Part shown: in pieces, positions 34,360 through 61,349 of the stretch
Numbering within the stretch: position 1 is the first letter of the stretch
Layout: each line of letters begins with the position of its first letter
NCBI GenBank assembly: GCA_002414905.1
Contig: DIAY01000212.1
Coordinates: 51,697-115,696 of the forward strand
DNA from: Holophagales bacterium UBA5066
Lineage (GTDB): Bacteria; Acidobacteriota; Thermoanaerobaculia; UBA5066
DNA length: 64,000 nucleotides
Reading direction: 5' to 3'
Notes under the pieces: model-generated
Database searches by the model: none
What the model was told of the DNA's origin: nothing
What the model saw: the letters and a program-made list of their open reading frames with translations, nothing else
Made by a program: the position numbers and the translations under genes

Positions 34360-34388
34360 CGGCGGCGCCCGCCAAGGCCGATCCGAAG

Positions 34389-40409: not shown

Positions 40410-40417
40410 GACCGGCT

Positions 40418-42520: not shown

Positions 42521-42557
42521 GTCCTCTTCATCGGAAACAGGCCCGCCTCCCTCGCCG

Positions 42558-42597
42558 TGGCGCCAGCATGTTGGCGCGTGCCAACATGCTGGCGCCA
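42558..42597. promoter_or_regulatory. perfect 18-bp inverted repeat TGGCGCCAGCATGTTGGC-gcgt-GCCAACATGCTGGCGCCA, 38 nt after the bEBP stop and ~100 bp upstream of sigma-54-like promoters
   Basis: Read directly from the sequence and checked base by base. The position fits either a bEBP enhancer (UAS) or a U-less terminator hairpin for the bEBP gene. Confidence 0.5.
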
Positions 42598-42662
42598 AAT
42601 GATTGGCACCGCCGGGATGGGTTCTGTCTTAGAATTAAGTTAAGTTGTTCTATTAGAACAAC

Positions 42663-42708
42663 TTGGCGTGTCGTTCGCCGACTTGCCCGTCGCGGCATTC
42701 TCCTTGCT
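42663..42708 (+). promoter_or_regulatory. two candidate sigma-54 -24/-12 elements: TGGCGT-gtcgt-TCGC (42663-78) and CGGCAT-tctcc-TTGCT (42693-708)
   Basis: Both have GG and GC in the 12-nt register. The second has a perfect TTGCW -12 box and lies 29 nt upstream of the STAS ATG, with GAGGAGG between them. A low-GC tract (ttagaattaagttaagttgttctattagaac) lies between the palindrome and these elements. Confidence 0.45.
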
Positions 42709-42735
42709 CACCCACCTTGCGCGAGGAGGCCGCCC

Positions 42736-43077
42736 ATGCTGAAGATCACGACCTGGACCGAGCATGAAGAAGTCTGTCTGAAGCTCGAGGGCGACCTGGT
42801 CGGTACCTGGGTTCGCGATCTCGAAGAGTGCTGGCGGTCGAACCGTTCGAAGGGCGGCGGCTCGGGGGTCTGCCTCGACCTCACGGGCGTCACGCGCGTG
42901 GACGACGCGGGTCGCTATCTCCTCGCGCTGATCCAGGAGACCGGGGCTCGGATGGTCTCGACCGGTGTCGCGATGAAGGACCTGCTCGAGTCGATCGCCC
43001 GCGACTGGCCGCGGGCGCGGACCGAGAGCAAGGGTTGGGTTGCCCTCCCCACGGCCCGTGCGGCCGATGCGGGATGA
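42736..43077 (+). CDS. STAS-domain protein (anti-sigma-factor-antagonist / SpoIIAA-like fold)
   Basis: 113 aa. Contains CLKLEGDLVG...VCLDLTGVTRVDDAGRYLLALIQETGARMVSTGV. It is the first gene of the RND operon. Confidence 0.7.
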   Translation: MLKITTWTEHEEVCLKLEGDLVGTWVRDLEECWRSNRSKGGGSGVCLDLTGVTRVDDAGRYLLALIQETGARMVSTGVAMKDLLESIARDWPRARTESKGWVALPTARAADAG

Positions 43078-43112
43078 AGCACCCGGAACCAGACCACGAG
43101 AAGAACAGCCGA

Positions 43113-44324
43113 ATGAGCTCGATGGAGAAACAGATGAGTGAACGCCGTCCCCTTTTCCCGGCCTTTCCGATTCTCGCCACCGCCACCGTCGTCGCGGTGC
43201 TGACCGCCGCGTGCGGCAAGGGCCCGGCTCAGCCGCCGCAGGGGCCGGCCGAGGTCGGTGTCGTCACGATGACGACCGAGAAGGTCATCCTGACGACGGA
43301 GCTCCCGGGCCGTACGTCGCCTTTCCTCGTCGCCGAGGTCCGCCCGCAGGTGAACGGTCTCCTTCGTGAGAGGAGCTTCGAAGAAGGCTCCAGCGTGAAG
43401 GCGGGCGCGCTCCTCTACCAGATCGACCCGGCTCCCTACCAGGCCGCGTTCGAACAGGCGAAGGCGTCGCTCGCGATGGCCGAAGCGAACCTCCCGGCCG
43501 CTCGTGCGCGCGCCGCACGACTCAAGGGGCTGGTCGAGATTCGCGCCGTCGGGCAGCAGGACTACGACGACGCCGCAGCGGCGGCGATGCAGGCCGAGGC
43601 GGGCGTCGCGGCCGCGAAGGCGACCGTGGAGAGCGCGCGGATCAACCTGTCCTACACGCCGATCCGCGCACCGATCTCCGGCCGGACGGGCAAATCGAGC
43701 GTGACCGTCGGCGCGCTCGTGACGGCGTACCAGCCGGTTCCCCTCACGGTCGTCCAGCAGCTCGACCCGATCTACGTCGACGTGACGCAGTCCTCCGTCG
43801 AGCTCCTCCACCTTCGGGAAGGATTCAGGAGCGGAGGCCTCACCCGGAACGACGCCTCATGGAGCAAGGTCAAGCTCGTCCTGGAGGACGGGACGACCTA
43901 CCCGCGGGAAGGGAAGCTCAAGTTCCGCGACGTGACGGTCGACCCGACGACCGGGTCCGTCAGCCTCCGCATGGTCTTTCCGAACCCCGACGACCTTCTC
44001 CTTCCGGGGATGTTCGTCCGCGCGATCGTCGAAGAAGGTGTGATCAAGGACGCGATCCTCGTTCCCCAGCAGGGCGTCACCCGCGATCAGAAGGGACACC
44101 CCTACGCCCTCGTCGCCGGCAAGGACGGGAAGGCCGAGCAGCGGATGCTGACGCTCGACCGGGCTATGGGCGACCGCTGGCTCGTCACGAAGGGGCTCGC
44201 CACGGGCGACCAGGTCATCGTCGACGGTCTGCAGCGGATACGCCCCGGAGCCGACGTGAAGACGGTGCCGTTCACGGCGCCGGCCAGCTCCGGGCCCGGC
44301 ACGGCAGCCCCGGCGGCGAAGTAG
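43113..44324 (+). CDS. RND efflux periplasmic adaptor (membrane fusion protein) lipoprotein
   Basis: Has a lipobox LTAAC and HlyD-like coiled-coil and barrel regions (INLSYTPIRAPISGRTG). Confidence 0.9.
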   Translation: MSSMEKQMSERRPLFPAFPILATATVVAVLTAACGKGPAQPPQGPAEVGVVTMTTEKVILTTELPGRTSPFLVAEVRPQVNGLLRERSFEEGSSVKAGALLYQIDPAPYQAAFEQAKASLAMAEANLPAARARAARLKGLVEIRAVGQQDYDDAAAAAMQAEAGVAAAKATVESARINLSYTPIRAPISGRTGKSSVTVGALVTAYQPVPLTVVQQLDPIYVDVTQSSVELLHLREGFRSGGLTRNDASWSKVKLVLEDGTTYPREGKLKFRDVTVDPTTGSVSLRMVFPNPDDLLLPGMFVRAIVEEGVIKDAILVPQQGVTRDQKGHPYALVAGKDGKAEQRMLTLDRAMGDRWLVTKGLATGDQVIVDGLQRIRPGADVKTVPFTAPASSGPGTAAPAAK

Positions 44325-44333
44325 GGAGGCGCG

Positions 44334-47300
44334 ATGTCTCGATTTTTCCTCGAGCGCCCCGTCTTCGCCTGGGTTATCGCGATCGCGATGATGCTGGCGG
44401 GCGGCATGGCGATCGTGAACCTTCCGATCTCCCAGTACCCGCCCATCGCGCCGCCCTCGATCGGGATCCGGGCCATCTACCCCGGGGCGTCCGCGAAAAC
44501 CGTCGAGGATTCCGTCGTCCAGATCATCGAGCAGAAGATGACCGGGCTCGACCGGATGCTCTACATGTACTCCACCGCCGACTCGTCGGGCAGCACGCAG
44601 ATCACGTTGACGTTCGCACCGGGGACCGATCCCGACATCGCCTGGTCGAAGGTCCAGAACAAGCTCCAGCTCGCGATGCCGGCCCTCCCCGACGTCGTCC
44701 AGCAGGCGGGTGTGACCGTCAGCAAGGCGACACGGAATTACCTCCTCATCGCCGGCGTCGTCTCCGAGGACGGCAGCCTCGACAACGCGGACCTCAACGA
44801 CTACACCTCCTCGAAGATCGAGTCGGTCATCGGCCGGGTCCCCGGCGTCGGTGAAGTCGAGGTCTTCGGAACCTCCTATTCGATGCGGGTCTGGTTCGAC
44901 CCGGACAAGCTGACGAAGTACGGGATGACGTCGGACGACGTCGTCGCCGCCCTGAGGGCTTACAACGTCGAGGTCTCCGCCGGTCAGCTCGGCGGTGCGC
45001 CGGCCGTCCCCGGACAACGCCTCAACGCTTCGATCCTCGTCCAGTCGCTCCTGAAGACACCGGAGGAATTCGCGTCGGTCCCGCTCCGGACGAACACCGA
45101 CGGGTCGGTCGTGACGGTGAAGGACATCGGCCGGGCCGAGCTGGGCACCGAAGCTCCCGACGTGGCGTTCCGGTTCAACGGAAAGCCGGCGGGCGTCTTC
45201 GCGGTCCGTCAGGAGGCGGGGGCGAACGCCCTCGACACCGCTCGCCGGGTCAAGGAGAAGATGGAGGAGCTCTCGCACTTCTTCCCGCCCGGGATGAAGC
45301 CGGTCTACATCTACGACACGACCCCGTTCGTGAAGGTGGCCATCGACGACGTCTTCAAGACGCTCTTCGAGGCGATCATCCTCGTCTTCCTCGTCATGTA
45401 TCTGTTCCTCGGAAACCTCCGGGCGACGCTCATCCCGACGATCGCCGTCCCGGTCGTCATTCTCGGGACGTTCGGCGTCCTCGGCTTCCTCGGCTACTCG
45501 ATCAACATGCTGACGATGTTCGCCATGGTGCTCGCCATCGGGCTCCTCGTCGACGATGCGATCGTCGTCGTCGAGAACGTCGAGCGGATCATGAGCGAGG
45601 AAGGACTCTCCCCGCTCGAGGCGACCCGGAAGTCGATGGACGAGATCACGAGCGCCCTCGTCGGGATCGGCCTCGTCCTCTCGGCGGTCTTCGGGCCGAT
45701 GGTCTTCTTCCCGGGCTCCACCGGCGTCATCTACCGGCAGTTCTCGGTCACCGTCATCGCTTCGATGCTCCTCTCCGTCGCCGTCGCCCTCATCCTGACG
45801 CCCGTTCTCTGCGCGACGCTCCTCCAGCCCGTCGCCAAGGGGCACGAGACGGCGGAGACGGGCAGCAGCTTCCTGCGGCCGTTTTTCCTCTGGTTCGACC
45901 GGCTCTTCAACCGGTTGAGGGACCATTACACGCGGTCGGTCGGCCAGATCCTCGGAAAGAGAAGCCTCTTTGCCGTCGTCTTCGCCGTGATCGTCGGTGT
46001 GATGGTGCTTCTCTACCTCCGGATGCCGACCGGCTACCTTCCGGACGAAGACCAGGGGACGCTGATGGCGATGGTCCAGCTCCCGGTCGGCTCGACGCTC
46101 GAGCAGACGCAGGCCGTCATGGCTGATGTCGAGCACCACTTCCTCGTCGACCAGAAGGACGCCGTGAAGTCGTGCGGCGCGGTATCGGGGTCGGGTTTCG
46201 GCGGGCGAGGCCAGAACATGGGGATGATCTTCGTCCAGCTCAAGGACTGGAAGCTGCGCAACCGCCCCGGCCTGCGCGCCAAAGACGTCGCTGGCAAGGC
46301 GATGCAGGCGCTCTCGGGCCAGCGCGGCGCCATCGTCTTCGCCTTCCCGCCCCCCGCCGTCGTCGAGCTCGGTACGGCGACCGGATTCGACCTGATGCTC
46401 CAGGACCGGGGCGACCTCGGGCACGATGGCCTCACGGGCGCGATGGGTCAGCTCCTCGGGCTTGCCGCAAAGGATCCCCGCCTCGCCCGCGTCAGGCCGA
46501 ACGGGATGCCGGACGTCCCGCAGTACAAGGTCGACATCGACTGGGAGAAGGCGGGTGCCTTCGGCGTCCCGGTCAGCTCGATTCAGAGCTATCTCTCGGC
46601 GGCGTTCGGCAGCGCGTACGTCGGAAACTTCGTTCAGGGAGGACGGGTCAAGCGCGTCTACGCCCAGGCCGACGCCCCGTTCCGGATGCTCCCGGGGGAC
46701 TTCCACCGCCTCCAGGTCCGCAACCGCAAGGGCGGACTCGTCCCCCTGTCAGCCGTGACCTCGGGCCGGTGGATCTATGGTTCGCCGCGGCTCGAGCGAT
46801 ACAACAGCTTCCCCGCGATGAACATCCAGGGGGAGCCCGCGCCCGGACACAGCTCCGGCGAGGCGATGCTCGCCATGGAGGAGCTCATCGGCAAGCTCCC
46901 GGCCGGAGTCGGCTACGAGTGGACGGGACTCTCCTACCAGCAACGGATGTCGGAGTCGCAGACGGGGCTCCTCTACTCCTTCTCGATCCTCGTGATCTTC
47001 CTCGTCCTGGCGGCGCTCTACGAGAGCTGGACGGTCCCGATCTCGATCGTCCTCGCCCTCCCGCTCGGCGTCATCGGCGGCGTCATCGCCTCCTCCATGC
47101 GCGGCATGACGAACGACGTCTACTTCCAGATCGGTCTTCTCGCCGTCCTCGGCCTGACGACGAAGAACGCGATCCTCATCGTCCAGTTCGCCGTGGCAAA
47201 CCGCGAGAAGGGGATGGGCCTCGTCGACGCGACCCTCGAGGCGGCCAAGACCCGGCTCCGCCCGATCGTGATGACCTCGTTGGCGTTCGGTTTCGGTGTC

Positions 47301-47507
47301 CTGCCGCTCACGCTCGCGAGCGGAGCCGGGGCCGGCGCGCAGAAGGCGATCGGCACGAGCGTCCTCGGTGGCATGCTGAGCGGCACGTTCCTCGCCGTCA
47401 TCTTCATCCCGCTCCTCTACGTCCTCGTCGTTCGGCTCTTCGAGGGCAGGAAGGCCGAAGCGGCGCAACCCGCCCCCGAGGCGCCGCTCCCGGCGGAGGG
47501 AAAGTGA
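44334..47507 (+). CDS. RND multidrug efflux permease (HAE1/AcrB family)
   Basis: 1057 aa with 12 TM segments and two large periplasmic loops. AcrB-like motifs are present throughout. Confidence 0.95.
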   Translation: MSRFFLERPVFAWVIAIAMMLAGGMAIVNLPISQYPPIAPPSIGIRAIYPGASAKTVEDSVVQIIEQKMTGLDRMLYMYSTADSSGSTQITLTFAPGTDPDIAWSKVQNKLQLAMPALPDVVQQAGVTVSKATRNYLLIAGVVSEDGSLDNADLNDYTSSKIESVIGRVPGVGEVEVFGTSYSMRVWFDPDKLTKYGMTSDDVVAALRAYNVEVSAGQLGGAPAVPGQRLNASILVQSLLKTPEEFASVPLRTNTDGSVVTVKDIGRAELGTEAPDVAFRFNGKPAGVFAVRQEAGANALDTARRVKEKMEELSHFFPPGMKPVYIYDTTPFVKVAIDDVFKTLFEAIILVFLVMYLFLGNLRATLIPTIAVPVVILGTFGVLGFLGYSINMLTMFAMVLAIGLLVDDAIVVVENVERIMSEEGLSPLEATRKSMDEITSALVGIGLVLSAVFGPMVFFPGSTGVIYRQFSVTVIASMLLSVAVALILTPVLCATLLQPVAKGHETAETGSSFLRPFFLWFDRLFNRLRDHYTRSVGQILGKRSLFAVVFAVIVGVMVLLYLRMPTGYLPDEDQGTLMAMVQLPVGSTLEQTQAVMADVEHHFLVDQKDAVKSCGAVSGSGFGGRGQNMGMIFVQLKDWKLRNRPGLRAKDVAGKAMQALSGQRGAIVFAFPPPAVVELGTATGFDLMLQDRGDLGHDGLTGAMGQLLGLAAKDPRLARVRPNGMPDVPQYKVDIDWEKAGAFGVPVSSIQSYLSAAFGSAYVGNFVQGGRVKRVYAQADAPFRMLPGDFHRLQVRNRKGGLVPLSAVTSGRWIYGSPRLERYNSFPAMNIQGEPAPGHSSGEAMLAMEELIGKLPAGVGYEWTGLSYQQRMSESQTGLLYSFSILVIFLVLAALYESWTVPISIVLALPLGVIGGVIASSMRGMTNDVYFQIGLLAVLGLTTKNAILIVQFAVANREKGMGLVDATLEAAKTRLRPIVMTSLAFGFGVLPLTLASGAGAGAQKAIGTSVLGGMLSGTFLAVIFIPLLYVLVVRLFEGRKAEAAQPAPEAPLPAEGK

Positions 47508-48955
47508 TGAACGGCAAGCTGATCCCGCGTGGCCTCGCACTCCTCTCCGCAGCGCTCCTGGCAAGCGGCTGCACCATGATCCCGAAGTATGAACAGCCGC
47601 CTCTGCCGGTGGCGGACTCCTTCGAAGCGGCGGCCGGTGCCGGAAGCGGCACGGCACCCGCCCCGGGCGAGGCTGACCCCGTCCCCGCTGCGCCCGTCCC
47701 CGCGGCGAAGGACGTTCCCTGGCAGGAGTACATCACCGACGCACGCCTGAGGTCGGTCATCGACCTCGCGCTCGCGAACAACCGCGACCTGAGAGTCGCG
47801 ACGCTCAACATCGAGAGGGCCGCGGCTCTCTACCGGATCCAGCGCTCCGACCTGTTCCCGACGATCGGCGTCCAGGCGACGGGCAACAAGTACCGGATTC
47901 CGGAAAGCCTCGGGGAGAACGGGAAGGCGAGCACCGTCTCGACCTACACCGTCGGCCTCGGGATGGCCTCGTGGGAGATCGATCTCTTCGGGCGTATCCA
48001 GAGCCTGAACGCACGCGCCCTCGAGCAGTACCTCGCAACGGAGCAGGTCCGGCGCGGTGCGCAGACCTCGCTCATCGCGGCGGTCGCCCAGAGCTGGCTG
48101 CAGCTCGCGGCTGACGAGGAGAACCTCCGGCTCTCGAGGGAGACGCTCGCCGCGCAGCAGAACTCGTACGAGCTGATCCGGATGAGCCGGGACGCGGGGA
48201 TCGGCTCCGACGTCGAGCTTCGCCAGTCGCAGAGCCAGGTGGAGGCGTCCCGCGCGAGCGTCGCCGCCTTCACGGGCGCGGTCGGCGTCTCGCGCAACGC
48301 GCTCGACCTCCTCGCCGGAACACCGGTCCCGGCCGACCTGCTTCCCGACCGCCTCGTCGCAGTGACGGACCCGAAGGGGCTCTCCTCCGGCCTCCCGTCG
48401 GAGGTTCTCCTGCGCCGGCCCGACATCCTCGCCGCCGAGCATCTCCTCCGCGGCGCGAACGCGAACATCGGTGCGGCCCGAGCCGCCTTCTTCCCGCGCA
48501 TCTCCCTCACCGCCGGCTTCGGCACGTCGAGCCCCGACCTCGACGGCCTCTTCAAGGCCGGGACGAGCGTCTGGAGCTTCGTGCCCCAGATCGTCTCACC
48601 GCTCTTCGCGAGCGGCTCCCTCCTCGCGAACCTGAAGGTCTCGAAGGTCGACCGCGAGATCGCGGTAGCGACCTACGAGAAGGCGATCCAGACCGCGTTC
48701 GCCGAGGTCAACGACGCCCTGACGCTCCGGACGACGCTGGTCGCCCAGAAGGAGGCGCAGGACGCCCTCGTCGAGGCGCTCGACGCAACGCTGTTCCTCT
48801 CCGACGCGCGCTTCAAGGCCGGGCTCGACGGGTATCTCGGCGTCCTCGTTGCCCAGCAGGCGATCATCAACGCCCAGCGCGCAGCGGTCGGCGTCCGCCT
48901 CGCCGAGCAGGCGAACCTCGTGGCTCTCTACAAGGTCCTCGGCGGAGGGGTGTGA
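47507..48955 (+). CDS. RND efflux outer membrane factor lipoprotein (NodT/OprM family)
   Basis: The start overlaps the permease stop. It has a lipobox LASGCT and duplicated alpha-barrel repeats. Confidence 0.9.
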   Translation: MNGKLIPRGLALLSAALLASGCTMIPKYEQPPLPVADSFEAAAGAGSGTAPAPGEADPVPAAPVPAAKDVPWQEYITDARLRSVIDLALANNRDLRVATLNIERAAALYRIQRSDLFPTIGVQATGNKYRIPESLGENGKASTVSTYTVGLGMASWEIDLFGRIQSLNARALEQYLATEQVRRGAQTSLIAAVAQSWLQLAADEENLRLSRETLAAQQNSYELIRMSRDAGIGSDVELRQSQSQVEASRASVAAFTGAVGVSRNALDLLAGTPVPADLLPDRLVAVTDPKGLSSGLPSEVLLRRPDILAAEHLLRGANANIGAARAAFFPRISLTAGFGTSSPDLDGLFKAGTSVWSFVPQIVSPLFASGSLLANLKVSKVDREIAVATYEKAIQTAFAEVNDALTLRTTLVAQKEAQDALVEALDATLFLSDARFKAGLDGYLGVLVAQQAIINAQRAAVGVRLAEQANLVALYKVLGGGV

Positions 48956-48989
48956 TTCTCCGGCCGTTCCTGGCTTCGCCCGTCCTCGC

Positions 48990-49011
48990 GGCCGCCTCGA
49001 TCGGGGCGGCC
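48990..49011 (+). terminator. GC hairpin GGCCGCC-N8-GGCGGCC after the efflux operon
   Basis: A 7-bp stem, 35 nt after the outer membrane factor stop, with no U-tract. Confidence 0.3.
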
Positions 49012-49082
49012 GCGCTGGGTGTCTCTGCGTCCACCGGGCCGGACTCGAGGCCCGCGCGTACACTTGAACCAAAGGAGCCAGC

Positions 49083-49466
49083 ATGGCAAGACCGATTTCA
49101 GTGATCATCGATGACATCGTCGCGAACCTCCGGGAGTTGAAGGACGCTGTCGGCCCCTTCGCAAGGCTGGCCTCTGTTTTCAAGGGAGCCGACGAACCCT
49201 CTCCGGTCAGGAAGGCCGGCAGGAAGCCGGGACCGGCGAAGAACTCCCCGGCTGTCGTGAAGGCTGCTGCAACTCCTGTGAAGCCACCTGCGGCTGCAAA
49301 GGAGGCCCGGAAGCCGAGCCCGGCGCTTCAGGCGCAGGGCCGCTACATGTCGGCGATTCGTCGCCTCTCGAAGACCCAGAAGGCCGAGATCAAGAAGATC
49401 CGGGCCGAGAAGGGCGTAGAAGAGGCGATCAGGATCGCCCTGGCAAAGCCTTCCAGAAGGAAATAG
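49083..49466 (+). CDS. small Lys/Ala/Pro-rich basic protein (histone-H1-like tail, possible nucleoid-associated/DNA-binding)
   Basis: 127 aa. Locally low GC at the 5' end with AAAGGAG before the ATG. Contains KAAATPVKPPAAAKEARKP. It lies immediately left of the first tRNA-fragment repeat. Confidence 0.45.
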   Translation: MARPISVIIDDIVANLRELKDAVGPFARLASVFKGADEPSPVRKAGRKPGPAKNSPAVVKAAATPVKPPAAAKEARKPSPALQAQGRYMSAIRRLSKTQKAEIKKIRAEKGVEEAIRIALAKPSRRK

Positions 49467-49556
49467 GCCGGCCAGGTCTCTCAGGCGGCTTCTGCACGTC
49501 GATCCGTGCTCGCCGTTGGCTTTCTCAAAGCACAGACAGAACACGGACAAAAAGGC

Positions 49557-49668
49557 CCGAAAACGAAGAACCCGGCGTTTCCGCCGGGTCGTCGTGACCG
49601 CTTGCATCTCGCGGACTTATGTATGGTTGCGAGGGCAAGATTTGAACTTGCGACCTTTGGGTTTTGAG
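49557..49668. repeat. direct repeat copy 1 (~112 bp): terminator hairpin plus the 3' part of a minus-strand tRNA
   Basis: Near-identical to 52104..52216, with about 5 mismatches. On the minus strand it reads ...ctca[a/t]aa CCCAA AGGTC GCAAG TTCAAAT CTTGC CC[T/C]CGCA A CCA followed by CCCGGCGGAAACGCCGGG TTCTTCGTTTT. Identity stops inside the anticodon loop. Confidence 0.7.
49624..49668 (-). tRNA. partial tRNA (anticodon-loop-to-CCA 3' portion only), in repeat copy 1
   Basis: Has a T-arm GCAAG-TTCAAAT-CTTGC, a 7-nt acceptor 3' strand, a discriminator A and an encoded CCA. No complementary 5' acceptor strand or D-arm was found upstream, so it is not an intact gene. Confidence 0.4.
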
Positions 49669-49829
49669 TGAATGGGTCAAGCGGAATCGAACGCGATCAA
49701 GGTATCAAGCTACCAAATCGGTCCCCTCGCCAAATCCGCTGGCGCCGGCCGGCGATTCCATCTGCGGCGCTAGCCCGGTCGGTCGTGACCGAGCATCAGG
49801 ATGGAGACCGCAGGCAGCCAATCCAATCC

Positions 49830-50399
49830 TCAACAGCGGCGACGGCTGCGGGGCTTCTGGTCACGCCATCGTGCGACGCGCCCTCGATGAGGACCGTCCT
49901 GCCGTTCCGGTGAAGCGCGATGACTGCCGGGTAGGCGCCGGGCGCCATGCTCGCGACGCAGCGTGCCGACGACGTCCGCCACGTCGTCCTCGTACTGGCC
50001 GATGTGGTCGACGTCTCCGGGCCTGCCCGCCGAGAGTCCGTGGCCGCGGAGGTAGAGGCGAATGACGCTCGCTCCGGTCGACTCGTGCAGCAGGCGAGCG
50101 GTCTCTTCGAGCTCGGAAGAGGAGCCGAGGACGCCGTGCAGCAAGAGCACCGTCAGCTCGCCCGTGCCGGTGCGCTGACGCGCCGCGAGCCTCACTCCAT
50201 CCCGCGCCTGGAAGGTGCGGAGGCCGGCGTCATCGCGGCGGGGCACGCCGAGAGACGGGCTCGAAGCCGAGACGGCGAGGTCGACGGGCGGCCTCGAGAA
50301 CCTGGGCGCGGGCGCCAGGGCGAGCGCGGCGCCTGCCAGCAACCAGAGCGCGGCGACACTCCCGACAACGAATAGGGTGTTCCGAAGGATACGGGGCAT
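49830..50399 (-). pseudogene. alpha/beta-hydrolase gene fragment (N-terminal part intact, distal part degenerate)
   Basis: A signal-like N-terminus and an oxyanion-hole LLLHGVLGSS are present. After ~130 aa the sequence becomes Arg-rich nonsense (LPGSHRASPERQDG) where the GxSxG nucleophile should be. Confidence 0.4.
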
Positions 50400-50497
50400 G
50401 GACGTCCCTCCTGGCCTGCGAGCAAGCAGGCATTCTTGCTGTTGATCGAACAGGTGATTCCTGGGCGTGCGTCGGCCGCGCCGACAGGATCAAGCGA

Positions 50498-51175
50498 TCA
50501 GGTGCGGCGCTCGTCTTCCTCGAACTGCGAGAGCGAGCCGAGGAAGGATTCCGCTGTTGTCAGGCTCTGGCCGGCGAGCGCCCGCATAAGGCGCTGCACG
50601 ATGGGAGAACCGCCCATCCGGTCCGCGTAGCGCCGTGAGAGCCAGACGGCGAGCACGATCACCACGAGACCGAAGAGCACGTTAGCGATCAGCCAGCGAG
50701 CGCCGAACATCGTGTAGGCATCGACACCGAAGAGACCCTTCAGCGCCACGATCAGGAGCGGCGTCCAGGCGAGCGGCGCGAGAACGAACGTCCACTTCAC
50801 GGTTCGGATCCGCAAGACCCGGAGCGATGCCAGCCGCTTCTGAATCGAGAGGATCGGCGCGCCGTAGTCGATCGCCCGGAGGACCACGAGCTGGCGGATA
50901 CCGGAGACGAGGAGGGCGATCACTCCGAGGTGGAGTCCTAGAGCCGGGAAGAAGAAGCGTGCCTCCCCGACGTGTTCCGCGAGGAACGAGCCGATCAAGA
51001 GGACGGCCGGGACGGCGAAGAGCAGCTCGAACCAGAGCAAACGGGAGAGTGGTCTCGTCGCCGCTTCGGCCTTACCCATTACCGACTCCCGCACCAGGCG
51101 CGTGTTCAACCGAATCCCGGCATCCAGTTTCTCGTCCTGCTCGGCCCAGAGTCGCTGCAGTTCCTCGATTTCCAT
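50498..51175 (-). CDS. membrane protein, putative anti-sigma factor partner of the adjacent ECF sigma
   Basis: Starts MEIEELQRLWAEQDEKL, lies 13 nt downstream of the ECF sigma gene, and has 4 predicted TM helices. Confidence 0.45.
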   Translation of the reverse strand: MEIEELQRLWAEQDEKLDAGIRLNTRLVRESVMGKAEAATRPLSRLLWFELLFAVPAVLLIGSFLAEHVGEARFFFPALGLHLGVIALLVSGIRQLVVLRAIDYGAPILSIQKRLASLRVLRIRTVKWTFVLAPLAWTPLLIVALKGLFGVDAYTMFGARWLIANVLFGLVVIVLAVWLSRRYADRMGGSPIVQRLMRALAGQSLTTAESFLGSLSQFEEDERRT

Positions 51176-51188
51176 GTTGGCCTCCGTG

Positions 51189-51692
51189 TCAGTCCGTGCG
51201 CGGCAGGTCGCGGCGGAGCCGCTGTTTGAGCCGGCTGAGCTTCGTCCCAACGTTGGTTTGGGAAATGCCGAGGATCTCGGCGATCGTGTCGTAGGTGTTC
51301 CCGTCCAGATGGAGGAGCAAGAGCGCGCGGTCGAGCTCGGCGAGCCGTGCCATCGCCTCGTACAGGAGTCGGACGTCCTCGTTCGCCAGCGCGGGCGCTA
51401 CTGCCGCGATCTCGAGGATGGAGTCCTCGGCCGGCACGAGGTAGCGCGACCGCCGGGCCTCGCTCCGATGGAAGGAGATCGCGACGTTGAGCGCTACCCG
51501 GTACATCCAGGTGGAGAAGCGGTAGCGGTCGTCGTAGGTGCCGAACGACCGCCAGAGCTGCACGACCATCTCCTGCACGAGGTCCTGCCGATCCGCTGCG
51601 GTGCGCCCGTAGGAGCCAGCGATCTTGTGGAGGATTCTCTTGTGCTGATCCAGCAGGATGAGGAGCTCGTCCTGCTTTGCCGGGTTCGACAT
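51189..51692 (-). CDS. ECF-type RNA polymerase sigma-70 factor
   Basis: Has region 2 (DLVQEMVVQLWRSFGTYDDRYRFSTWMYRVALNVAIS) and region 4 (YDTIAEILGISQTNVGTKLSRLKQRL). Confidence 0.85.
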   Translation of the reverse strand: MSNPAKQDELLILLDQHKRILHKIAGSYGRTAADRQDLVQEMVVQLWRSFGTYDDRYRFSTWMYRVALNVAISFHRSEARRSRYLVPAEDSILEIAAVAPALANEDVRLLYEAMARLAELDRALLLLHLDGNTYDTIAEILGISQTNVGTKLSRLKQRLRRDLPRTD

Positions 51693-52103
51693 CGGGCTCC
51701 TTCCTTCGGTCCGCGGCAGCGCGACCATGCCGCATTCACCCTATGATTCGCTCCAGGCCTCGAAAGATCACACCGACGGGTCGGCTTCCGAAGACGGAAA
51801 CGCTCGACCGACCCTGGCAGGGAAAGCTCGGGCGCCTGACCCCGGACCTCATCCCCGTCGATCGTGTTCTCGCCGACCTTCCGGGGATCGTGGCCGACCT
51901 TCTCGGCCTCGGACGGTCGCTTGTGACCGAGACGTAGCCTCCCCTCCGCGCGAATCGGACCGGCTCCGGCCCGAGAGTTCCTATCTCACGACCGACGTCG
52001 TGAAGCCGGTCGACCCAGACGACTTCGAAGCGGATTGGCGATACGTCGAGACCCGTCGAGATCTATCCAGGGGCGTTCAACCTGGAAGGAACTTCGACAT
52101 CGA

Positions 52104-52216
52104 GCGAAAAACGAAGAACCCGGCGTTTCCGCCGGGCTCACGTAACCGCTTGCATCTCGCGGACTTATGTATGGTTGCGGGGGCAAGATTTGAACTTGCG
52201 ACCTTTGGGTTATGAG
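52104..52216. repeat. direct repeat copy 2 (~113 bp): terminator hairpin plus tRNA 3' portion; anticodon-loop remnant reads CTCATAA (CAU)
   Basis: See copy 1. It ends ~155 bp from the integrase stop codon. Confidence 0.7.
52172..52216 (-). tRNA. partial tRNA (3' portion only), in repeat copy 2
   Basis: Same T-arm and acceptor as copy 1, with the encoded CCA at 52174..52172. No intact cloverleaf could be completed upstream. Confidence 0.4.
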
Positions 52217-52366
52217 CCCGTTCGAGGACCTTTAGACGTATCAGGATCGTTATCGAAACACATGGATGAAGTGCTTAATGATCAACGTATTACGGGCTGT
52301 TGTCGGGGTGGGTATCTCGATCCGTTTCGAGGAAGTTTGAGCGATCTTTACGCCTCTAACCTAGGG

Positions 52367-53650
52367 ATGACCTAGGACTTCTCAGACGCGCCGAACGCAC
52401 CGTTCACGTACTCCTTCGCCTGGTCCGGGCGATCCTCGAGGAAGTGAACGTACTGCCGATAAGTGAAGGCGGGAGAACTGTGGCCGAGCTGGTCGGCCGC
52501 GAAGGCGACGGGTGCTCCCTGCGTCAGAAGGCGCGAGGCGTAGAGGTGGCGGAGGGCATGCGGCGTGAAGTCGGCCCCTTCGACGGCCTTGAGTGCGGGG
52601 ACCCAGTGGCGCTGGACGAAGTTCCGATCGTTTAGGACCGGAGGTCGTTCGGCCCGCGGCTCCTTCGTCGTCGGGTCCTGCGCCAATGCAGCGTCCGTCT
52701 CCTTCCTAAGGGTGCGGGCCACCGGGAAGACCCATGGATCCGAACGAACAGTCTTCCCCGATACCTGTTGAGCGCGATAGGCCTTGAGTCTCTCGGCGAG
52801 GCCGTCCGGAATCACGATGCTCCGTCTTCCGCGCTCCGTCTTCGGCGTGCCGAGCTTCCCCGTCACCTGGTCGATTGACCGCGCTACGGTGATGCGACGG
52901 CCATCGAGGTCAACATCGTCCCATTGAAGCGCGAGGCATTCGTTGAGCCGCATTCCCGTAAAGAGCAGAACCTCTGCCGCGGCCCGCGGACCGGGGGCCT
53001 TGATGGCCCCGACCACCTTGCAGGCCGCTTCGTAAGAAGGGACTCGGACTGGATTCGAACGCTTCGGCGGGAGCTCGAGGAGGGTCGCCGGATTCTGGGC
53101 GAGGATCCCTCGCTTCACGGCGTCCTGAAGGACTGAACGAAGGAGGAGAAGCGCCTCGCGCTTCGTCTGGCCCGAAACCTTCCGCTCGATGAGCGTGGCC
53201 CGAAGGCGGCTCAGGCGTTCGTAGGTGACATCGCGGAGGGGCCATTCGCCGAGGGCGGGAGCGAGATGCTGGCGGTAGCGCGACCGCGCGGCTCGTATCG
53301 TCGAATCCTTTCGTCCGACCATTGCTTCGGGGAAGTAGACCTTCTCGACGAATTCCGTGAAGCTGACTCGCGACGCAGAGCGGTCCACGAGGGGTGCGCC
53401 CCCGTCGAGTTCGAGGCTCCGTTTCTCCCGCGCCTTTACAGCCTCTTCGATGGTAGAGAAGGCTCCGACGAAGGCGCTCTTACCGTGGTGGTAGACGAAC
53501 GTGTCGAAGGTTCCGTGCGGCGTCATCCAGACGCCGGTCGCAACCTTTATCCGTCTGAGCGGGGCCTCCTTCGGGAGCTTCTGCGCGAGTTTCCAGCCAA
53601 CCTTCTGACCTCTCGGCATGCCCCGATTCTATCGTAAATCCCTAGGTCAT
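52367..53650. repeat. 10-bp inverted repeat ATGACCTAGG (52367-76, overlapping the int stop) / CCTAGGTCAT (53641-50, 22 nt upstream of the int ATG) bracketing the integrase gene
   Basis: Both copies were read directly. Each one is embedded in CCTAGG palindromes. Confidence 0.4.
52372..53619 (-). CDS. tyrosine-type site-specific recombinase (phage integrase family)
   Basis: 415 aa. An N-terminal SAM-like/AP2-like region is followed by a catalytic domain carrying the R...HALRH...R...Y motifs (HALRHLYASRLLTQGAPVAFAADQLGHSSPAFTYRQYVHF). Confidence 0.9.
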   Translation of the reverse strand: MPRGQKVGWKLAQKLPKEAPLRRIKVATGVWMTPHGTFDTFVYHHGKSAFVGAFSTIEEAVKAREKRSLELDGGAPLVDRSASRVSFTEFVEKVYFPEAMVGRKDSTIRAARSRYRQHLAPALGEWPLRDVTYERLSRLRATLIERKVSGQTKREALLLLRSVLQDAVKRGILAQNPATLLELPPKRSNPVRVPSYEAACKVVGAIKAPGPRAAAEVLLFTGMRLNECLALQWDDVDLDGRRITVARSIDQVTGKLGTPKTERGRRSIVIPDGLAERLKAYRAQQVSGKTVRSDPWVFPVARTLRKETDAALAQDPTTKEPRAERPPVLNDRNFVQRHWVPALKAVEGADFTPHALRHLYASRLLTQGAPVAFAADQLGHSSPAFTYRQYVHFLEDRPDQAKEYVNGAFGASEKS

Positions 53651-53699
53651 ACCCAAAGCTCGGGTGCGGAGCCCGTCTCGCCGGAGCAGCAGGGAGGGG

Positions 53700-54212
53700 C
53701 TAACTCTTCGGGGTCGGCAGCGCAGCGGGCGAAGCCGTTCGAGTAACTGGCGGAGGGGACACAATGAAGATCGTTGGCTTCCCTGAGATCGACGCATCGA
53801 GCGCTTGGTATCCGTTCCCGACGTCTCGGAGGGGGGCGACCCGAACCCAAGACAGCTGATCAGGCAAGAGACCCACCGTCTTCGTCCACCGCGTTCCTGC
53901 CTCCGTCTGGAGGTAGCGAAGGATGTCTTCCCGGCTATGGAAGAACTCGCGAGACCACTCGGTCGGCTCCTCCTTCGCTCCGATCCTCCCGAGATAGGCG
54001 CCCTCCGCAGCACGAACGCGCGCCTTCTCATCCTCCTGCCAGCGGAGAGTGTCGAGGATCGGAGAAGAGCCTTCAGGAATCGGTACGGTTCGCGGAGCAG
54101 CAGAGGCGTGGGCAGCGGCCGGCGAAGGCCTCTTGGCACTGACCGTCGTTCCGACGCCGACTCCGACTCCCAGGGCGGCAAGCACCCACGCTACGACCTC
54201 TCGTCCTTGCAT
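53700..54212 (-). CDS. hypothetical secreted protein
   Basis: 170 aa with an N-terminal hydrophobic signal. The overlapping ORF 53642..54181 is Arg-rich junk. Confidence 0.4.
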   Translation of the reverse strand: MQGREVVAWVLAALGVGVGVGTTVSAKRPSPAAAHASAAPRTVPIPEGSSPILDTLRWQEDEKARVRAAEGAYLGRIGAKEEPTEWSREFFHSREDILRYLQTEAGTRWTKTVGLLPDQLSWVRVAPLRDVGNGYQALDASISGKPTIFIVSPPPVTRTASPAALPTPKS

Positions 54213-54324
54213 CGTCTCCTCCTCACGCCGTCCTTCGCTCGACAGGAGCGGCGACCGCTGATTGTGACTGACGGTGCCTGACTGAACCCGGACACGCAGG
54301 CGCGAGTGAGACTGTCGGGGGCGG

Positions 54325-55077
54325 CTATGCGGCTGAGAGCGTTCTCGCCGCCCGGCGAATCAATCCGCCAAACGACTCATTCTGGACGTAGTCCTCGAGT
54401 GCATGGCCGCCGGGAAGCTGTCGATAGCAGGCGGCGCGGCGTCCGTTCTCCAATGCACGGATCGTCGCCACGTTCGAGTGAAACACATTGTCGTTTCGGT
54501 TGTAGTAGAGCGTGATCGGCTCGGGCCAGGAAGCAGGGACGGCGACAGCCTGGTCGAGGCCGTCCGCTCCGAGAAGACCGGCGCCGAAGCACTCCGCGTC
54601 GGAATGGTGTCCGGCGAGTGCGAGCGGGGCGCCCCCGGAGTACCCGGCGGTATAGCGCGGCAGGCCCCGCATGGCGGGAAGTGACTCGAACACGGCAGAG
54701 AGAAGCTCGATTCGAACATGCGTGTTCCAGCGATCCGCGGCGGCAGGGTCTACCGGGAAGCGAAGGAACGGGACATCAAAGGGAGCCGTGACGTACACGA
54801 ACCCAAACGAGTGCGTCCGCTCGAGGGATTCGAGAGTGCGATCGAAGATGGGGACGATCGTATTGAGGCGTTCCAAGTAGACCGACTCCGAAACGCCGGA
54901 ACCCCCGAAGAAGAGCATCAGGAAGGTGGGCTTCGGGCCGGCCACGAACGCGTCGGCGTGAAAAGGTCGTCCAAGAACCAGGCTCTCGTTGCGGATCTTC
55001 TGTCGCTCCACGAACGAAGCGTAGCAGCGAATGCCAGCTACCGCCTGTAGCCGGAGCCGACCGCGGCCGAAGCGCAT
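54325..55077 (-). CDS. alpha/beta-hydrolase-fold esterase-like protein
   Basis: A GxSxG-like nucleophile GYSGGAPLALAGH lies in an a/b-hydrolase-like context, with a C-terminal GGHALEDY. Confidence 0.5.
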   Translation of the reverse strand: MRFGRGRLRLQAVAGIRCYASFVERQKIRNESLVLGRPFHADAFVAGPKPTFLMLFFGGSGVSESVYLERLNTIVPIFDRTLESLERTHSFGFVYVTAPFDVPFLRFPVDPAAADRWNTHVRIELLSAVFESLPAMRGLPRYTAGYSGGAPLALAGHHSDAECFGAGLLGADGLDQAVAVPASWPEPITLYYNRNDNVFHSNVATIRALENGRRAACYRQLPGGHALEDYVQNESFGGLIRRAARTLSAA

Positions 55078-55080
55078 ATG

Positions 55081-55863
55081 TCAGTCGCCACCGTTGTCGC
55101 CGGGCGTGGCGGGTGTGGGCGGCCTGTAGACAGGCTGACGATAGGAACGTCGCTCGTAGTGCGGCATCGCGAAATGCGGCATCGTGAAGTGCGGCCGCGT
55201 GTAATGAAATCTTGAGTAGCGCGGCCCATCGGGCTCTGCCGCCTGTTGTCCTGAGACGCCTGACGTCGAGTCGGACCACGAGCGCGGATGATCGACGCGA
55301 GAAGGCGCCTCGGGAATATCGACGCTGGGACGGACGGTCTGGCGCACCTCGTCCCTGACCGCCTCGGCCCGCCGCGCTCCCTCGGAGATGGTGTCGTCGT
55401 AGACCGTTCGGCGAGGGTCGGGGCGTGGCGAGGCGGGTCGCTGGCGCTGAGCGGCGCGGGCGCGCCGGAGTACTTCAGAGATGTCGATGAAGGGCTCGTC
55501 GGTTTCCGAAGGAGCACTCGAGCGCGGTCTGCTCGGCGCGGGTGGCGCCGCTGCGGCTCGGCGAGCGCGGGCATCAAGATAGGCGACGCGGTTCGGTCCG
55601 GTGAGCATCTGCCGGGCACGAACGAGTAGCTCGAGCGTCTCCCGATCACCCTTCCCGTCATTCAGATCCGGATGTACTGCGCGAATCCGCTTCCGGAAAG
55701 CGGAGAGGATGTCTGCATGGGAGGCGGTCTCAGGAACGCCGAGCACAGTGAAGTAGTCGGCGCCCCTGCGGAGATCGTCGTGGTATTCGGGAGTCTTCGT
55801 AGGACGGAGAGGGGAGTGGAGGGGGGAGGCAAGAAGGTACGGCGAATCGAGCGGCGACGTCAA
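55081..55863 (-). CDS. J-domain (DnaJ-like) protein with a low-complexity C-terminal PHF/PHY-repeat tail
   Basis: The J-domain is DYFTVLGVPETASHADILSAFRKRIRAVHPDLNDG with the HPD motif. The C-terminus reads RFHYTRPHFTMPHFAMPHYERRSYRQPVYRPP. Confidence 0.65.
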   Translation of the reverse strand: MTSPLDSPYLLASPLHSPLRPTKTPEYHDDLRRGADYFTVLGVPETASHADILSAFRKRIRAVHPDLNDGKGDRETLELLVRARQMLTGPNRVAYLDARARRAAAAPPAPSRPRSSAPSETDEPFIDISEVLRRARAAQRQRPASPRPDPRRTVYDDTISEGARRAEAVRDEVRQTVRPSVDIPEAPSRVDHPRSWSDSTSGVSGQQAAEPDGPRYSRFHYTRPHFTMPHFAMPHYERRSYRQPVYRPPTPATPGDNGGD

Positions 55864-56087
55864 GCCGCACTGGAACGGAGTGCGCCTCGCGGTCGTTTAG
55901 GAATGACGAATCCAGATGCGTCGAAACGAATCAACACGACATTTCGTCGCCGGCGAGATCAGGGGTCGCAGGTCGCCCCGCATCGCGAGAAAGTCCCGGA
56001 TGAGGCTGGGCAAAGCCTGTGGTCACACCCCCGCGGCGGGGCTCGGGACGCCGATCTTTCTCAACTGAATCCTTGACCCATACGGCC

Positions 56088-56504
56088 ATGACGATCCATC
56101 AATACGCTCTCCACGAGCGGCTCGAACGGATGTTCGGGCGAACTCCGGAGTGGTCCGCCCTACACGCTGCGCGGCAGTCGTGCGGGCAACTCTCGCCGGA
56201 GGACGCGTATGTCCATCTTTCGCGGCTCTTCGTCGCTTTCCAAGGGTGGCGCTTCACGCGTCTCCCGAGAACTGCGGGGCTCCCGCAGACGCCAGAAGAA
56301 CGGCGAGAGAGCTTCTTCCGAGCGCTCGATGAAGAGCGCCACGCCCGGGAGGTCGTCCCGGAAACCTACGAGCCATCGCTCGATGAGCGGCCGTCGGCAG
56401 TGGGCGAAATGGCGCCATACCTCGAGCTCAACCCCGAACTGGAAGAAGCCCTGGAAATTGACTACCCGGGCCTCTCCCATCGGCGGACTGCTCGCGTCGT
56501 ATGA
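56088..56504 (+). CDS. hypothetical protein
   Basis: An open frame with plausible composition (MTIHQYALHERLERMFG...). There is no domain call. Confidence 0.3.
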   Translation: MTIHQYALHERLERMFGRTPEWSALHAARQSCGQLSPEDAYVHLSRLFVAFQGWRFTRLPRTAGLPQTPEERRESFFRALDEERHAREVVPETYEPSLDERPSAVGEMAPYLELNPELEEALEIDYPGLSHRRTARVV

Positions 56505-56815
56505 GCGGCCGTTTTGCAGAGGTGCCCTCGCGCCGTTCCTGTCCGGAGTGCACCGGAGCAGGGCGAGGCGAAAACCCTCTCTACTATTACGTATCGGACG
56601 AGGGAGATCTTTCATTCTTCCAGGTTCGATGCTCGAACCGACGGGACTGCGGGTACGTCGAAACCCGCGCAGGGGCATTCGGACTCGCGACGAGGAGCGC
56701 GCTCCTTAAGTCGCGCAAGACCGTCCGCCGCCTCGTCGTCGCGGCCGTCGCCGAGGTGATCGCTCTGATCACCATCGGGATGACCCTCACGGTCGTCCTC
56801 GCGCAGGGTCGCTAG
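56501..56815 (+). CDS. small zinc-ribbon protein with a C-terminal TM helix
   Basis: CPEC...C..C cysteines plus a hydrophobic tail VVAAVAEVIALITIGMTLTVVLA. Its start overlaps the upstream stop. Confidence 0.35.
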   Translation: MSGRFAEVPSRRSCPECTGAGRGENPLYYYVSDEGDLSFFQVRCSNRRDCGYVETRAGAFGLATRSALLKSRKTVRRLVVAAVAEVIALITIGMTLTVVLAQGR

Positions 56816-56927
56816 AACAGAAACAGAAACACACCCACCGGGAGGCTTGCCCAGCTCTCCCCCTTCCCTCTCGGAGCGTCCACCCCGAGAGCAGATCAGC
56901 TGCCGTCACGGCAGAAGGAGGTGCAAC

Positions 56928-57848
56928 GTGCGTCCAGTCGAACCCACCTGGGACGAAATCGCCGTCCGCTACCGCCTCACGCTCCGGCTCCAGGGAAGGC
57001 AGCTCCGCGGCCGATGCCCGCTCCACGGCGGGCAGAACCCGACGGCGTTCGTCGTCGAGCCTACAGGGGGCGTCTTCTTCTGCCACGCCTGCGGACAGGG
57101 GGGCGGCATCGGGACGTTCGTTCGCCTCATGGAGGGCGACACCGGCGCCGATCGAGGCGCCCGGGTCCCTGAGGATCTGCGCACACGTCGGCTCGGGCCA
57201 AGCCCCCTCGAGCTCCGCCGACTGGCTCGTCTTCGAGACGTCCTCCTCCATGGCCTCCCCGAAGTCGAGCCGGTCTACCCGCGCGACGGCACGCACCCGT
57301 ACTTCGCCTCGCGCGGCGCTGCCTCGTCGACAGTTTCGGCCCTCGGGGGAGGCGTCTACACGGGACCTGGCCCCTACCACCGTCGCGCGGTCTTCCCTGT
57401 CTGGACCCCCGAGGGAAAGCTCGTCGGTCACATCGGACGCGCCATCGATTCTGGCGTCGAGCCGCGGTACCTCTGCGAGCGGGGCTTTCGGAAATCGCTC
57501 CTGCTCTACAACGAGCAGTCGGGCCAGGCGACGGACACGGTGTTCGTCGTCGAGGGGATCTTCGACGCCCTCGCAGTGATCCAGGCCGGCTTCGCGAACG
57601 TCGTGGCCCTCCTCGGGGCGGTGGCCTCGCCGTACCAGCTCGCGGCGCTGTCCTCTTCCCGGCACGTCGTCTCGCTCCTCGATGCCGACGATGCTGGTCG
57701 CCGTGGGGCGACGCTGCTCCGGGAAGTCCTCGGGAGGAACGTGACGGTATGCGATCTCGTGCATGGCGATCCCGGGGACGCGATGGCGGATCGTATTCGG
57801 TACGCGCTCGCGGGAGCCGTCACCGGTTCGCCTCTGCGCCCCGGTTGA
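56928..57848 (+). CDS. DNA primase-like protein (CHC2 zinc finger + Toprim), no helicase domain
   Basis: A GTG start with AAGGAGG upstream. The zinc finger is CPLHGGQNPTAFVVEPTGGVFFCHACGQGG and the Toprim motifs are VFVVEGIFDALAV...LLDADDAG. Confidence 0.75.
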   Translation: MRPVEPTWDEIAVRYRLTLRLQGRQLRGRCPLHGGQNPTAFVVEPTGGVFFCHACGQGGGIGTFVRLMEGDTGADRGARVPEDLRTRRLGPSPLELRRLARLRDVLLHGLPEVEPVYPRDGTHPYFASRGAASSTVSALGGGVYTGPGPYHRRAVFPVWTPEGKLVGHIGRAIDSGVEPRYLCERGFRKSLLLYNEQSGQATDTVFVVEGIFDALAVIQAGFANVVALLGAVASPYQLAALSSSRHVVSLLDADDAGRRGATLLREVLGRNVTVCDLVHGDPGDAMADRIRYALAGAVTGSPLRPG

Positions 57849-58046
57849 AGATCGGCCTCTCTCTGGACGACCACACTCGGCGCTGGCACAATGCTCTTTC
57901 GACTTCGTGCCTGACGCACTCGTCAGGCCCCGTTCGAAGAGGCGTTCACGCGATCCCGGTCATCAGCCGCTCACATGCCTCCACACTCTCGGGATCTGGC
58001 TTCGATATTCGGCGAGGATTGACCACGAGAGACCAGGGCCGAGGAG

Positions 58047-61262: not shown

Positions 61263-61349
61263 CGAGGGAAACGCTTCCTCGTACCTCCGGGTCGGAGAGG
61301 TCGGGTCCCGAACAGCGGCGGCAGGCCTGGGCGAGGGGAGTCTGCGTCG

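Follow-up and report, generated by a model that had tools for sequence, protein, structure and literature searches.

A 64,000-nucleotide (nt) stretch of contig DIAY01000212.1 (positions 51,697–115,696) from the Holophagales bacterium UBA5066, termed here the window, displays two direct repeats of about 110 nt. These repeats (copy 1 and copy 2) are in all likelihood displaced 3′ halves of an initiator tRNA gene (tRNA-fMet), produced by successive site-specific integrations into the sequence that encodes the anticodon stem-loop. Copy 2 borders an integrase-bearing element, termed island B, which is at least 14 kb in length and extends from position 52220 to beyond the window. Reading copy 1 as the scar of an earlier integration is supported by topology and by related genomes. 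The locus recurs in wastewater metagenomes, and the contigs compared (designated by L numbers) come from several assemblies and samples.

A repeat search of the window gives direct repeats of 109 nt with 94% identity at positions 49560–49668 and 52108–52216, and a gapped alignment widens these to approximately 49557–49668 and 52104–52219 (110–116 nt). A 32-nt repeat probe has only two matches in the 64 kb, one in each copy, and no match in 100 shuffled sequences. The minus strand of both copies represents the 3′ part of tRNA-fMet when aligned to E. coli tRNA-fMet, and both copies also match intact tRNA-fMet genes of related Thermoanaerobaculia. Recognizable in the tRNA part of the repeat are the anticodon CAT, the closing run of three G-C pairs in the anticodon stem, the T arm, and the 3′ strand of the acceptor stem, including ACCA. 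On the 3′ side of each tRNA part there is a 32-nt trailer, followed by a hairpin (CCCGGCG-GAAA-CGCCGGG) and a T-run. Both hairpins are scored by the terminator scan, and the stem shows covariation, with three pairs switched from G-C to C-G in L131 and L148. The parts of the two copies are as follows.

49624–49668, minus strand: tRNA part of copy 1, from the first loop nucleotide to the encoded CCA; the older displaced fragment, orthologous to fragment 2 of L131.
49559–49623, minus strand: trailer (49591–49623), terminator hairpin (49569–49590) and T-run of copy 1, from the terminator scan and hairpin covariation.
52172–52219, minus strand: tRNA part of copy 2 (stem GGG, loop CTCATAA and remainder to CCA), the core of the right attachment site (attR) of island B; identity with L139 begins exactly at 52219, and L138 begins here.
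52106–52171, minus strand: trailer (52140–52171), terminator hairpin (52116–52139) and T-run of copy 2, from the terminator scan and covariation; the trailer does not differ from the one that follows the intact tRNA in L139.

The initial annotation of this DNA, made from the sequence alone, had described two direct repeats of about 112 bp, each composed of a terminator and a minus-strand tRNA 3′ fragment without its 5′ half. The repeat search, the gapped alignment, the tRNA-fMet match and the terminator scan bear out this description. An intact tRNA at either copy was looked for and not found: ARAGORN gives no tRNA in the whole window, Rfam gives nothing relevant in the window, and a permissive threshold over positions 49000–53000 yields two chance-level matches only. 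Thus neither copy has a 5′ half. Both displaced fragments are end fragments of the tRNA gene sequence (tDNA) and not internal ones, as both reach the encoded CCA.

The point at which the copies diverge differs from the one first given. Similarity had been placed as ending 4 nt into the anticodon loop; the copies are instead alike across the entire 7-nt loop (CTCA[T/A]AA), with one substitution. The first nucleotide of copy 1 is the first of the anticodon loop, and copy 2 retains the stem GGG as well, to position 52219. The tRNA part of copy 1 has two substitutions, one that changes the anticodon from CAT to CAA and one from C to T in the acceptor stem; that of copy 2 has none.

Direct evidence for an insertion at copy 2 is provided by L139, a contig of 2840 nt from the same wastewater project, which is 100% identical to window positions 49995–52219. 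At the anticodon-stem GGG, where the window leads on to the integrase, L139 has the 5′ half of tRNA-fMet, followed by a region resembling a promoter (TTGACT/TATCTT) and by ahpC. ARAGORN calls an intact tRNA in L139, and the gene order is ahpC, intact tRNA-fMet, a trailer identical to that of copy 2, and the sigma factor gene. L139 is an empty site, for island B only. Therefore everything to the right of 52219 was inserted into tRNA-fMet, and copy 2 is the displaced 3′ half. A comparison with a genome that lacks the insertion was one of the checks initially suggested, and its outcome agrees with the proposal, with the junction falling at the boundary of copy 2. Two contigs found by AhpC homology, L182 (positions 1–130) and L185 (positions 1–60), also show ahpC followed by tRNA-fMet and stop inside the tRNA 3′ half, which fits the presence of several alternative downstream sequences in the community; two others, L183 and L184, show other contexts. 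Island B is absent from part of the population, i.e. it is polymorphic.

The features of island B that lie within the window are the following.

52220–52376, minus strand: P arm of island B, an AT-richer spacer with the direct repeat CCTAGGTCATCCCTAGGT (52359–52376) over the integrase stop codon; CCTAGGTCATCCCTAGGT occurs once in the window.
52372–53619, minus strand: tyrosine integrase of island B, 415 amino acids (aa) (Pfam PF00589, E = 5e-20; phrog_1, E = 6e-56).
53620–64000, no strand assigned: remainder of island B within the window; L009, a 14.25-kb island contig, is 100% identical to window positions 52093–64000.

The integrase gene is intact, and the catalytic R, HxLRH and Y motifs are all present. 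That the second copy sits next to an integrase gene was already part of the initial annotation, and this is confirmed: the end of the gene is 152 nt from the copy 2 fragment, on the same strand. The nearest integrase homologue found (76% aa identity) is in L148, where it ends approximately 150 nt upstream of a tRNA-fMet 3′ fragment. The L148 locus displays the junction GAAC/GGGCTCATAACCC and a direct repeat, CCCTAGGTCATCCCTAGGT, over the stop codon, as in the window. The sequence GGGCTCATAACCC (52207–52219) would be the core that contains the crossover region. Integrases with 25%–34% identity adjoin tRNA-Gly, tRNA-Arg or tRNA-Thr genes, and only distant integrase relatives (23%–33% identity) are found in IMG/VR.

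A lambda-type attP, the attachment site of the element, consists of core sites and of arm-type sites that are bound by the N-terminal domain of the integrase. The arrangement at tRNA-fMet appears similar in having an inverted GGG/CCC around a 7-nt segment and direct repeats on both sides, i.e. CCTAGGTCATCCCTAGGT by the integrase in the window, with its counterpart in L148, and a 19-mer behind the L104 terminator. The latter is the 19-mer repeat of window positions 52359–52376; in the Thermoanaerobaculia genome L104 it recurs just past the terminator that follows the intact tRNA-fMet gene, where the other arm of such an attP would be expected. Unlike in the lambda type, one repeat pair is recognized per arm, and the repeat sequences vary by unit (a unit being the tRNA half with its trailer, terminator and repeats), which suggests several integrase specificities.

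Direct repeat pairs of about 8 nt, placed 11 nt apart, are found 7–15 nt past the T-run in 10 of the 12 distinct units. At period 11 the best matches sum to 81, compared with 55.1 ± 3.5 in shuffled sequences (0 of 2000 reach 81) and 47–62 for other periods. Examples are CCCTAGGT in L104, GATAGGTT in L131 fragment 1, and TTTCTAGG in L135 fragment 1. The 11-nt-phased repeats are likely to be arm-type integrase sites carried by the elements. The two pairs in the window are:

49531–49549, minus strand: copy 1 pair, TGTCCGTG TTC TGTCTGTG, 10 nt past the T-run; candidate arm-type (P′) site with 7/8 matches at period 11 and an offset as in other units; if it is one, copy 1 would itself derive from an element.
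52079–52097, minus strand: degenerate copy 2 pair, TCGAAGTT CCT TCCAGGTT, past the terminator; likely a decayed P′ arm site of the older element, with 11-nt phasing.

Period-11 pairs are seen after terminators in L104, L125, L131, L135 and L148. Two intact tRNAs whose trailers have diverged further (L038 and L071) are not followed by such pairs, and these sites may never have been occupied. The unit behind the intact tRNA of L131 has TTAAGGTC repeats instead, with a spacing of 12–14 nt.

A process that would account for these features begins with an element whose attP reproduces the tRNA sequence from anticodon loop through CCA and also has the trailer, the terminator and the 11-nt-phased arm repeat pair. 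Strand exchange by a tyrosine integrase would take place within or next to the 7-nt segment that encodes the loop, which has the inverted GGG/CCC on either side. This segment is likely the overlap region, since an anticodon-centred class of attP is known (PMC4383910). The element-borne copy would complete the tRNA gene, in the case of island B at its unseen left end, and the prior 3′ half with its terminator would be shifted downstream as a scar. Copy 2 would then be the attR of the latest arrival, island B, and copy 1 the scar of an earlier event, of which a 2.4-kb element appears to survive, with a sigma/anti-sigma pair of the extracytoplasmic function (ECF) type and a decayed hydrolase gene. 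This surviving segment is the interval between the copies:

49669–52103, minus strand: interval between the copies, with a hydrolase pseudogene, an anti-sigma-like membrane protein and an ECF sigma factor; 94.6% identical to L131 positions 9363–11243.
49799–50399, minus strand: alpha/beta-hydrolase pseudogene with an internal deletion of about 400 nt, from comparison with L131.
50498–51175, minus strand: anti-sigma-like membrane protein of 225 aa, in anti-sigma position.
51189–51692, minus strand: ECF sigma factor.

Two relatives display arrays of such fragments. In the tRNA sense, L131 has ahpC, an intact tRNA-fMet, AbiEi/AbiEii genes, a fragment, a 282-aa open reading frame (ORF) with AbiEii, sigma, anti-sigma, a full-length hydrolase gene (337 aa), a second fragment, and then GDT1 and further genes up to phosphoglucomutase. 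Its identity with the window is 94.6% over the sigma region. Window positions 49560–49941 align to the 3′ end of the L131 hydrolase gene plus the second fragment (11907–12016); because of this homologous hydrolase 3′ end upstream, copy 1 is the orthologue of L131 fragment 2. L135, a more distant Holophagales, has two fragments with radical-SAM, aminotransferase and PIN genes between them. AbiE genes precede the L135 fragments, and alcohol dehydrogenase, short-chain dehydrogenase/reductase and TetR genes come after, together with a sigma/anti-sigma pair.

The boundary of the fragments is constant. The unit alignment shows that the fragments of window copy 1, L131 and L135 all start at the first anticodon-loop nucleotide, and that only copy 2 and L148 keep the GGG; such a fixed boundary is as expected of junctions made by an integrase. 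The units are 94%–95% identical between the window and L135, yet the sigma genes are only 75% identical. Conservation of the units above the genome background fits att sites that travel with elements. L135 also bears on an observation that the initial annotation had named as one that would speak against it, namely relatives with the same repeats and unrelated DNA between them. L135 shows just this arrangement, but repeated integration at one attB (the chromosomal target) predicts it, and the interpretation stands.

Several points weigh against tandem integration as the origin of both repeats. Pfam and protein annotation show no integrase or transfer gene in the 2.4-kb interval (49669–52103). 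The sigma/anti-sigma pair is a conserved module throughout the clade, with 180 homologues; it is present without nearby fragments in L133, and in L124 it is found downstream of tRNA-fMet with other genes intervening. The island origin of the interval is argued from topology only. Copy 1 has arm-like repeats as well, and hence it may not be the original chromosomal end. For island B, a regenerated intact tRNA with the left attachment site (attL) is seen neither in the window nor on the 14.25-kb island contig, and no contig with a circular attP junction was found. The order that such a regenerated gene would give is, on the other hand, present in L131.

These points are in part the basis of a different explanation, in which only copy 2 is a scar. 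The sigma, anti-sigma and hydrolase genes would be native, copy 1 would be a duplicated tRNA-fMet remnant or the product of an integrase-mediated rearrangement, and there would be one island and no tandem accretion. Besides the absence of mobility genes from the interval and the conservation of the sigma pair in varied contexts in Thermoanaerobaculia and Holophagales, this explanation is favored by the position of the pair downstream of tRNA-fMet in L124, L131 and L135 and by the vertical sharing of the module with L131 (94.6%). It is nevertheless improbable. Copy 1 and its L131 orthologue share the exact start nucleotide with every other att fragment, which random truncation of a duplicate would not produce. 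A fragment without a 5′ half at that boundary implies an integrase event with its other product upstream, and this places the interval between an attL and an attR. In addition, an AbiEii-type gene lies within the corresponding interval of L131.

Because it has no integrase, includes a clade-wide sigma pair, and is shared with L131 and with L143 (a strain of 98.6% identity), the 2.4-kb interval is taken as an ancient remnant that has become fixed, and its status as a mobile island is not demonstrable. The proposal of att scars from tandem integration, as first made, can thus be kept in the following form: it is shown directly for copy 2 by L139, it is supported for copy 1 by topology and relatives, and it does not extend to the 2.4-kb interval as a demonstrably mobile island.

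Decay of the interval is seen in the hydrolase pseudogene. Residues 1–156 are 94% identical to the 337-aa protein of L131, and the 3′ end is in another frame with 56% identity. Two short metagenome contigs, L144 and L145, end at 49958 and 49921, by the hydrolase deletion junction; these ends may point to a variant with an intact hydrolase gene.

It is also conceivable, but rather unlikely, that the tRNA-fMet locus in Thermoanaerobaculia/Holophagales is a cassette-like hotspot, in which integrase-less modules (defense or toxin-antitoxin genes such as AbiE and PIN, and regulators) are bounded by the units of about 110 nt. Passing elements that bear an integrase, for instance island B, would act in trans to bring in, remove or co-mobilize the modules, and the terminator of the unit (tRNA half, terminator and arm repeats) would insulate the cassettes transcriptionally. 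The modules between fragments in relatives (L131 5314–9304; L135 1–1011 and 4974–5578) consist mostly of AbiEi/AbiEii and PIN-type toxin-antitoxin genes, and no integrase was found in the 20 kb around them.

In a related and still less probable reading, the units are working recombination sites, and whichever integrase-bearing element is resident would capture, shuffle or co-excise in trans the integrase-less modules (AbiE, PIN toxin-antitoxin, sigma/anti-sigma), a form of accretion and cis-mobilization loosely like an integron. Integrase-less modules of 2–4.5 kb are indeed arrayed between units in L131 and L135, the units are 94%–96% identical across genomes that are far more different elsewhere, and most units retain arm-type repeats. 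The synteny of L131 with the window breaks exactly at the end of copy 1, and members of tandem arrays that can be mobilized in cis have a precedent (PMC3146451). Against this, the module is present in L143 and L131, no variant that lacks or exchanges it was found, and look-ups around a 127-aa ORF to the left of copy 1 yielded no variant without the older interval. Decay is evident in copy 1, in the repeats that follow copy 2 and in the hydrolase pseudogene, and P-arm repeats are not seen upstream of copy 1. The integrase of island B scores 45.7 and 31.9 bits against integron-integrase models with cut-offs of 265 and 435. An integron proper was rejected, with IntI-type models far below their cut-offs and repeats that are tRNA fragments and not attC sites.

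Assembly ERZ965221 keeps the island and the chromosome on separate contigs. The 74-kb chromosomal contig L138 begins exactly at GGGCTCATAA, and the island contig L009 ends 127 nt into the copy 2 unit; the two overlap by 127 nt, which is the k value of the assembler according to the contig names. This break fits a graph branch that results from cells with and without the island. A chimera of the two contigs joined through the repeat, which this separation and the small overlap at copy 2 could be taken to favor, can practically be dismissed, as unbroken sequence from the island genes through copy 2 to sigma and beyond is provided by a contig of 42 kb in another assembly (L001/L137) and by four shorter ones of other samples (L004–L007). 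The join of integrase, copy 2 and sigma is therefore real.

Tandem integration at tRNA-fMet, the interpretation preferred here, can be compared with systems already described. Tandem arrays, attP sites centred on the anticodon, and the signature of a tDNA with displaced fragments have all been established (PMC4383910), and tandem arrays with integrase-less members have been described (PMC3146451). The locus resembles the class “A” tRNA islands of Islander (PMC4383910) in its directly oriented fragment of the tDNA 3′ end, in an integrase gene that lies within the island close to one of the att sites, and in a boundary at the anticodon stem-loop. It is also similar in that the element brings the tRNA 3′ part with it, by which the gene would be restored, and in that an empty site is found. 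The differences are that the target here is the initiator tRNA-fMet of uncultured Thermoanaerobaculia, that the attL end with an intact tRNA is not observed, and that the shared block reaches approximately 65 nt past the tRNA and includes the trailer and a complete terminator.

The two segments differ with respect to the properties of tRNA-gene islands. A tyrosine integrase is present in island B and not in the 49669–52103 interval, and the empty site, L139, concerns island B only. The anticodon-centred geometry is found in both copies: copy 2 starts at the stem GGG and has a junction identical to that of L148, and the copy 1, L131 and L135 fragments start at the first loop nucleotide. In a strict tandem array as defined by Islander, each member has its own fragment and integrase; the intervals in the window, L131 and L135 are without an integrase. 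The 49669–52103 interval resembles a cis-mobilizable element (CIME) in its flanking repeats derived from att sites and in encoding neither an integrase nor transfer functions. Tandem accretion at one att site with cis-mobilizable members is likewise attributed to ICESt1/CIME of Streptococcus thermophilus (Pavlovic et al. 2004, as cited in PMC3146451).

The ssrA islands of Dehalococcoides (PMC3146451) are also similar, with several direct repeats of the target 3′ end downstream, mixed intervals with and without an integration module, and content that varies between strains. The Dehalococcoides islands have a serine recombinase, a 20-bp repeat and the T-loop of tmRNA as the site, whereas the repeat units at tRNA-fMet measure about 110 nt, the recombinase is a tyrosine integrase, and the site is the anticodon loop.

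To the left of copy 1, the synteny of the window with L131 and L135 stops exactly at the end of the copy 1 unit (T-run) and restarts only at phosphoglucomutase (window positions 30346–32030). The 17.5 kb between them (32030–49559) encodes a sigma-54 activator, a resistance-nodulation-division (RND) efflux operon, an outer-membrane factor and the 127-aa ORF. At the matching place, L131 has GDT1, PP2C, DUF5666 and SulP genes, none of which is present in the window. This segment may be a still older accretion or a replacement; no further tRNA-fMet fragment was found in it.

Other repeat-like sequences in the window were considered. T-loop-like pieces upstream of copy 1 (49669–49760) were rejected as a second tRNA fragment; they belong to the decayed 3′ end of the hydrolase gene and have their homologue in L131 11645–12015. 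A low-stringency search of the window finds no third, decayed fragment, and its sole extra match is a similar hairpin, GCCGGCGGAAACGCCGGC, at 40391–40408 (plus strand). This hairpin is near-identical to the stem-loop of the repeat terminator, has no adjoining tRNA fragment, and is probably just another terminator with a GAAA loop. A small hairpin in the trailer that appeared by eye to covary was dropped, as it was not recovered by RNAalifold.

tRNA-fMet 3′ fragments without a 5′ half, and with the GGG included, are also present in Rubrivivax (L033, L107, L108) and in Bryobacteraceae (L030). The three Rubrivivax genomes have one common junction, TGCCTCATGGGG/CTCATAA. In L124, positions 1889–2700, between sigma and tRNA-fMet, contain broken frames that resemble a decayed membrane-protein gene, together with a 405-aa secreted protein. 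The trailer of the L124 tRNA is of a different type, common to L036.

The cargo of island B consists of three small ORFs (without family matches), a DnaJ-domain protein, a DnaG-type primase, a 1071-aa PKD/NHL protein, a HEPN_LA2681 protein and the type I restriction gene hsdR, which runs past the end of the window; hsdS is found next on contig L009. The gene order is hsdS, hsdR and HEPN_LA2681, the last two sharing 4 nt at the end of hsdR (window positions 61350–64000, L009 1–3482). This part of the cargo is a type I restriction-modification system to which a HEPN protein is attached; PADLOC offers no model for HEPN_LA2681. When proteins were searched with the C-terminal part of HsdR, the exact full-length protein was not among the matches, and look-ups with the HEPN and PKD proteins returned the 14.25-kb contig only. 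Diverged repeats with a spacing of 165 nt inside the 1071-aa ORF (58545–59390) are NHL/PKD protein repeat units and are unrelated to the att repeats. A CCTAGG palindrome akin to the arm repeat is present at 53640–53647, about 20 nt upstream of the integrase start codon, and is a possible autoregulatory site.

Taken as a whole, the locus shows the classical signature of a tyrosine-integrase island in a tRNA gene, in a tandem array with an integrase-less member, and no new mechanism emerges from it. For annotation, the two tRNA-like fragments are better labelled as att scars than as pseudo-tRNAs. The boundaries of horizontally acquired DNA are fixed in the genome of an uncultured wastewater member of the Acidobacteriota, with the right boundary to the native chromosome at position 52219. 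Island B, polymorphic in the population, brings defense genes (type I restriction-modification and HEPN) into this genome. The sequence-level model of the attP, with the core GGGCTCATAACCC, the tRNA 3′ half, the trailer, the terminator and the 11-nt-phased arm repeats, would be usable to map such islands in Thermoanaerobaculia/Holophagales.

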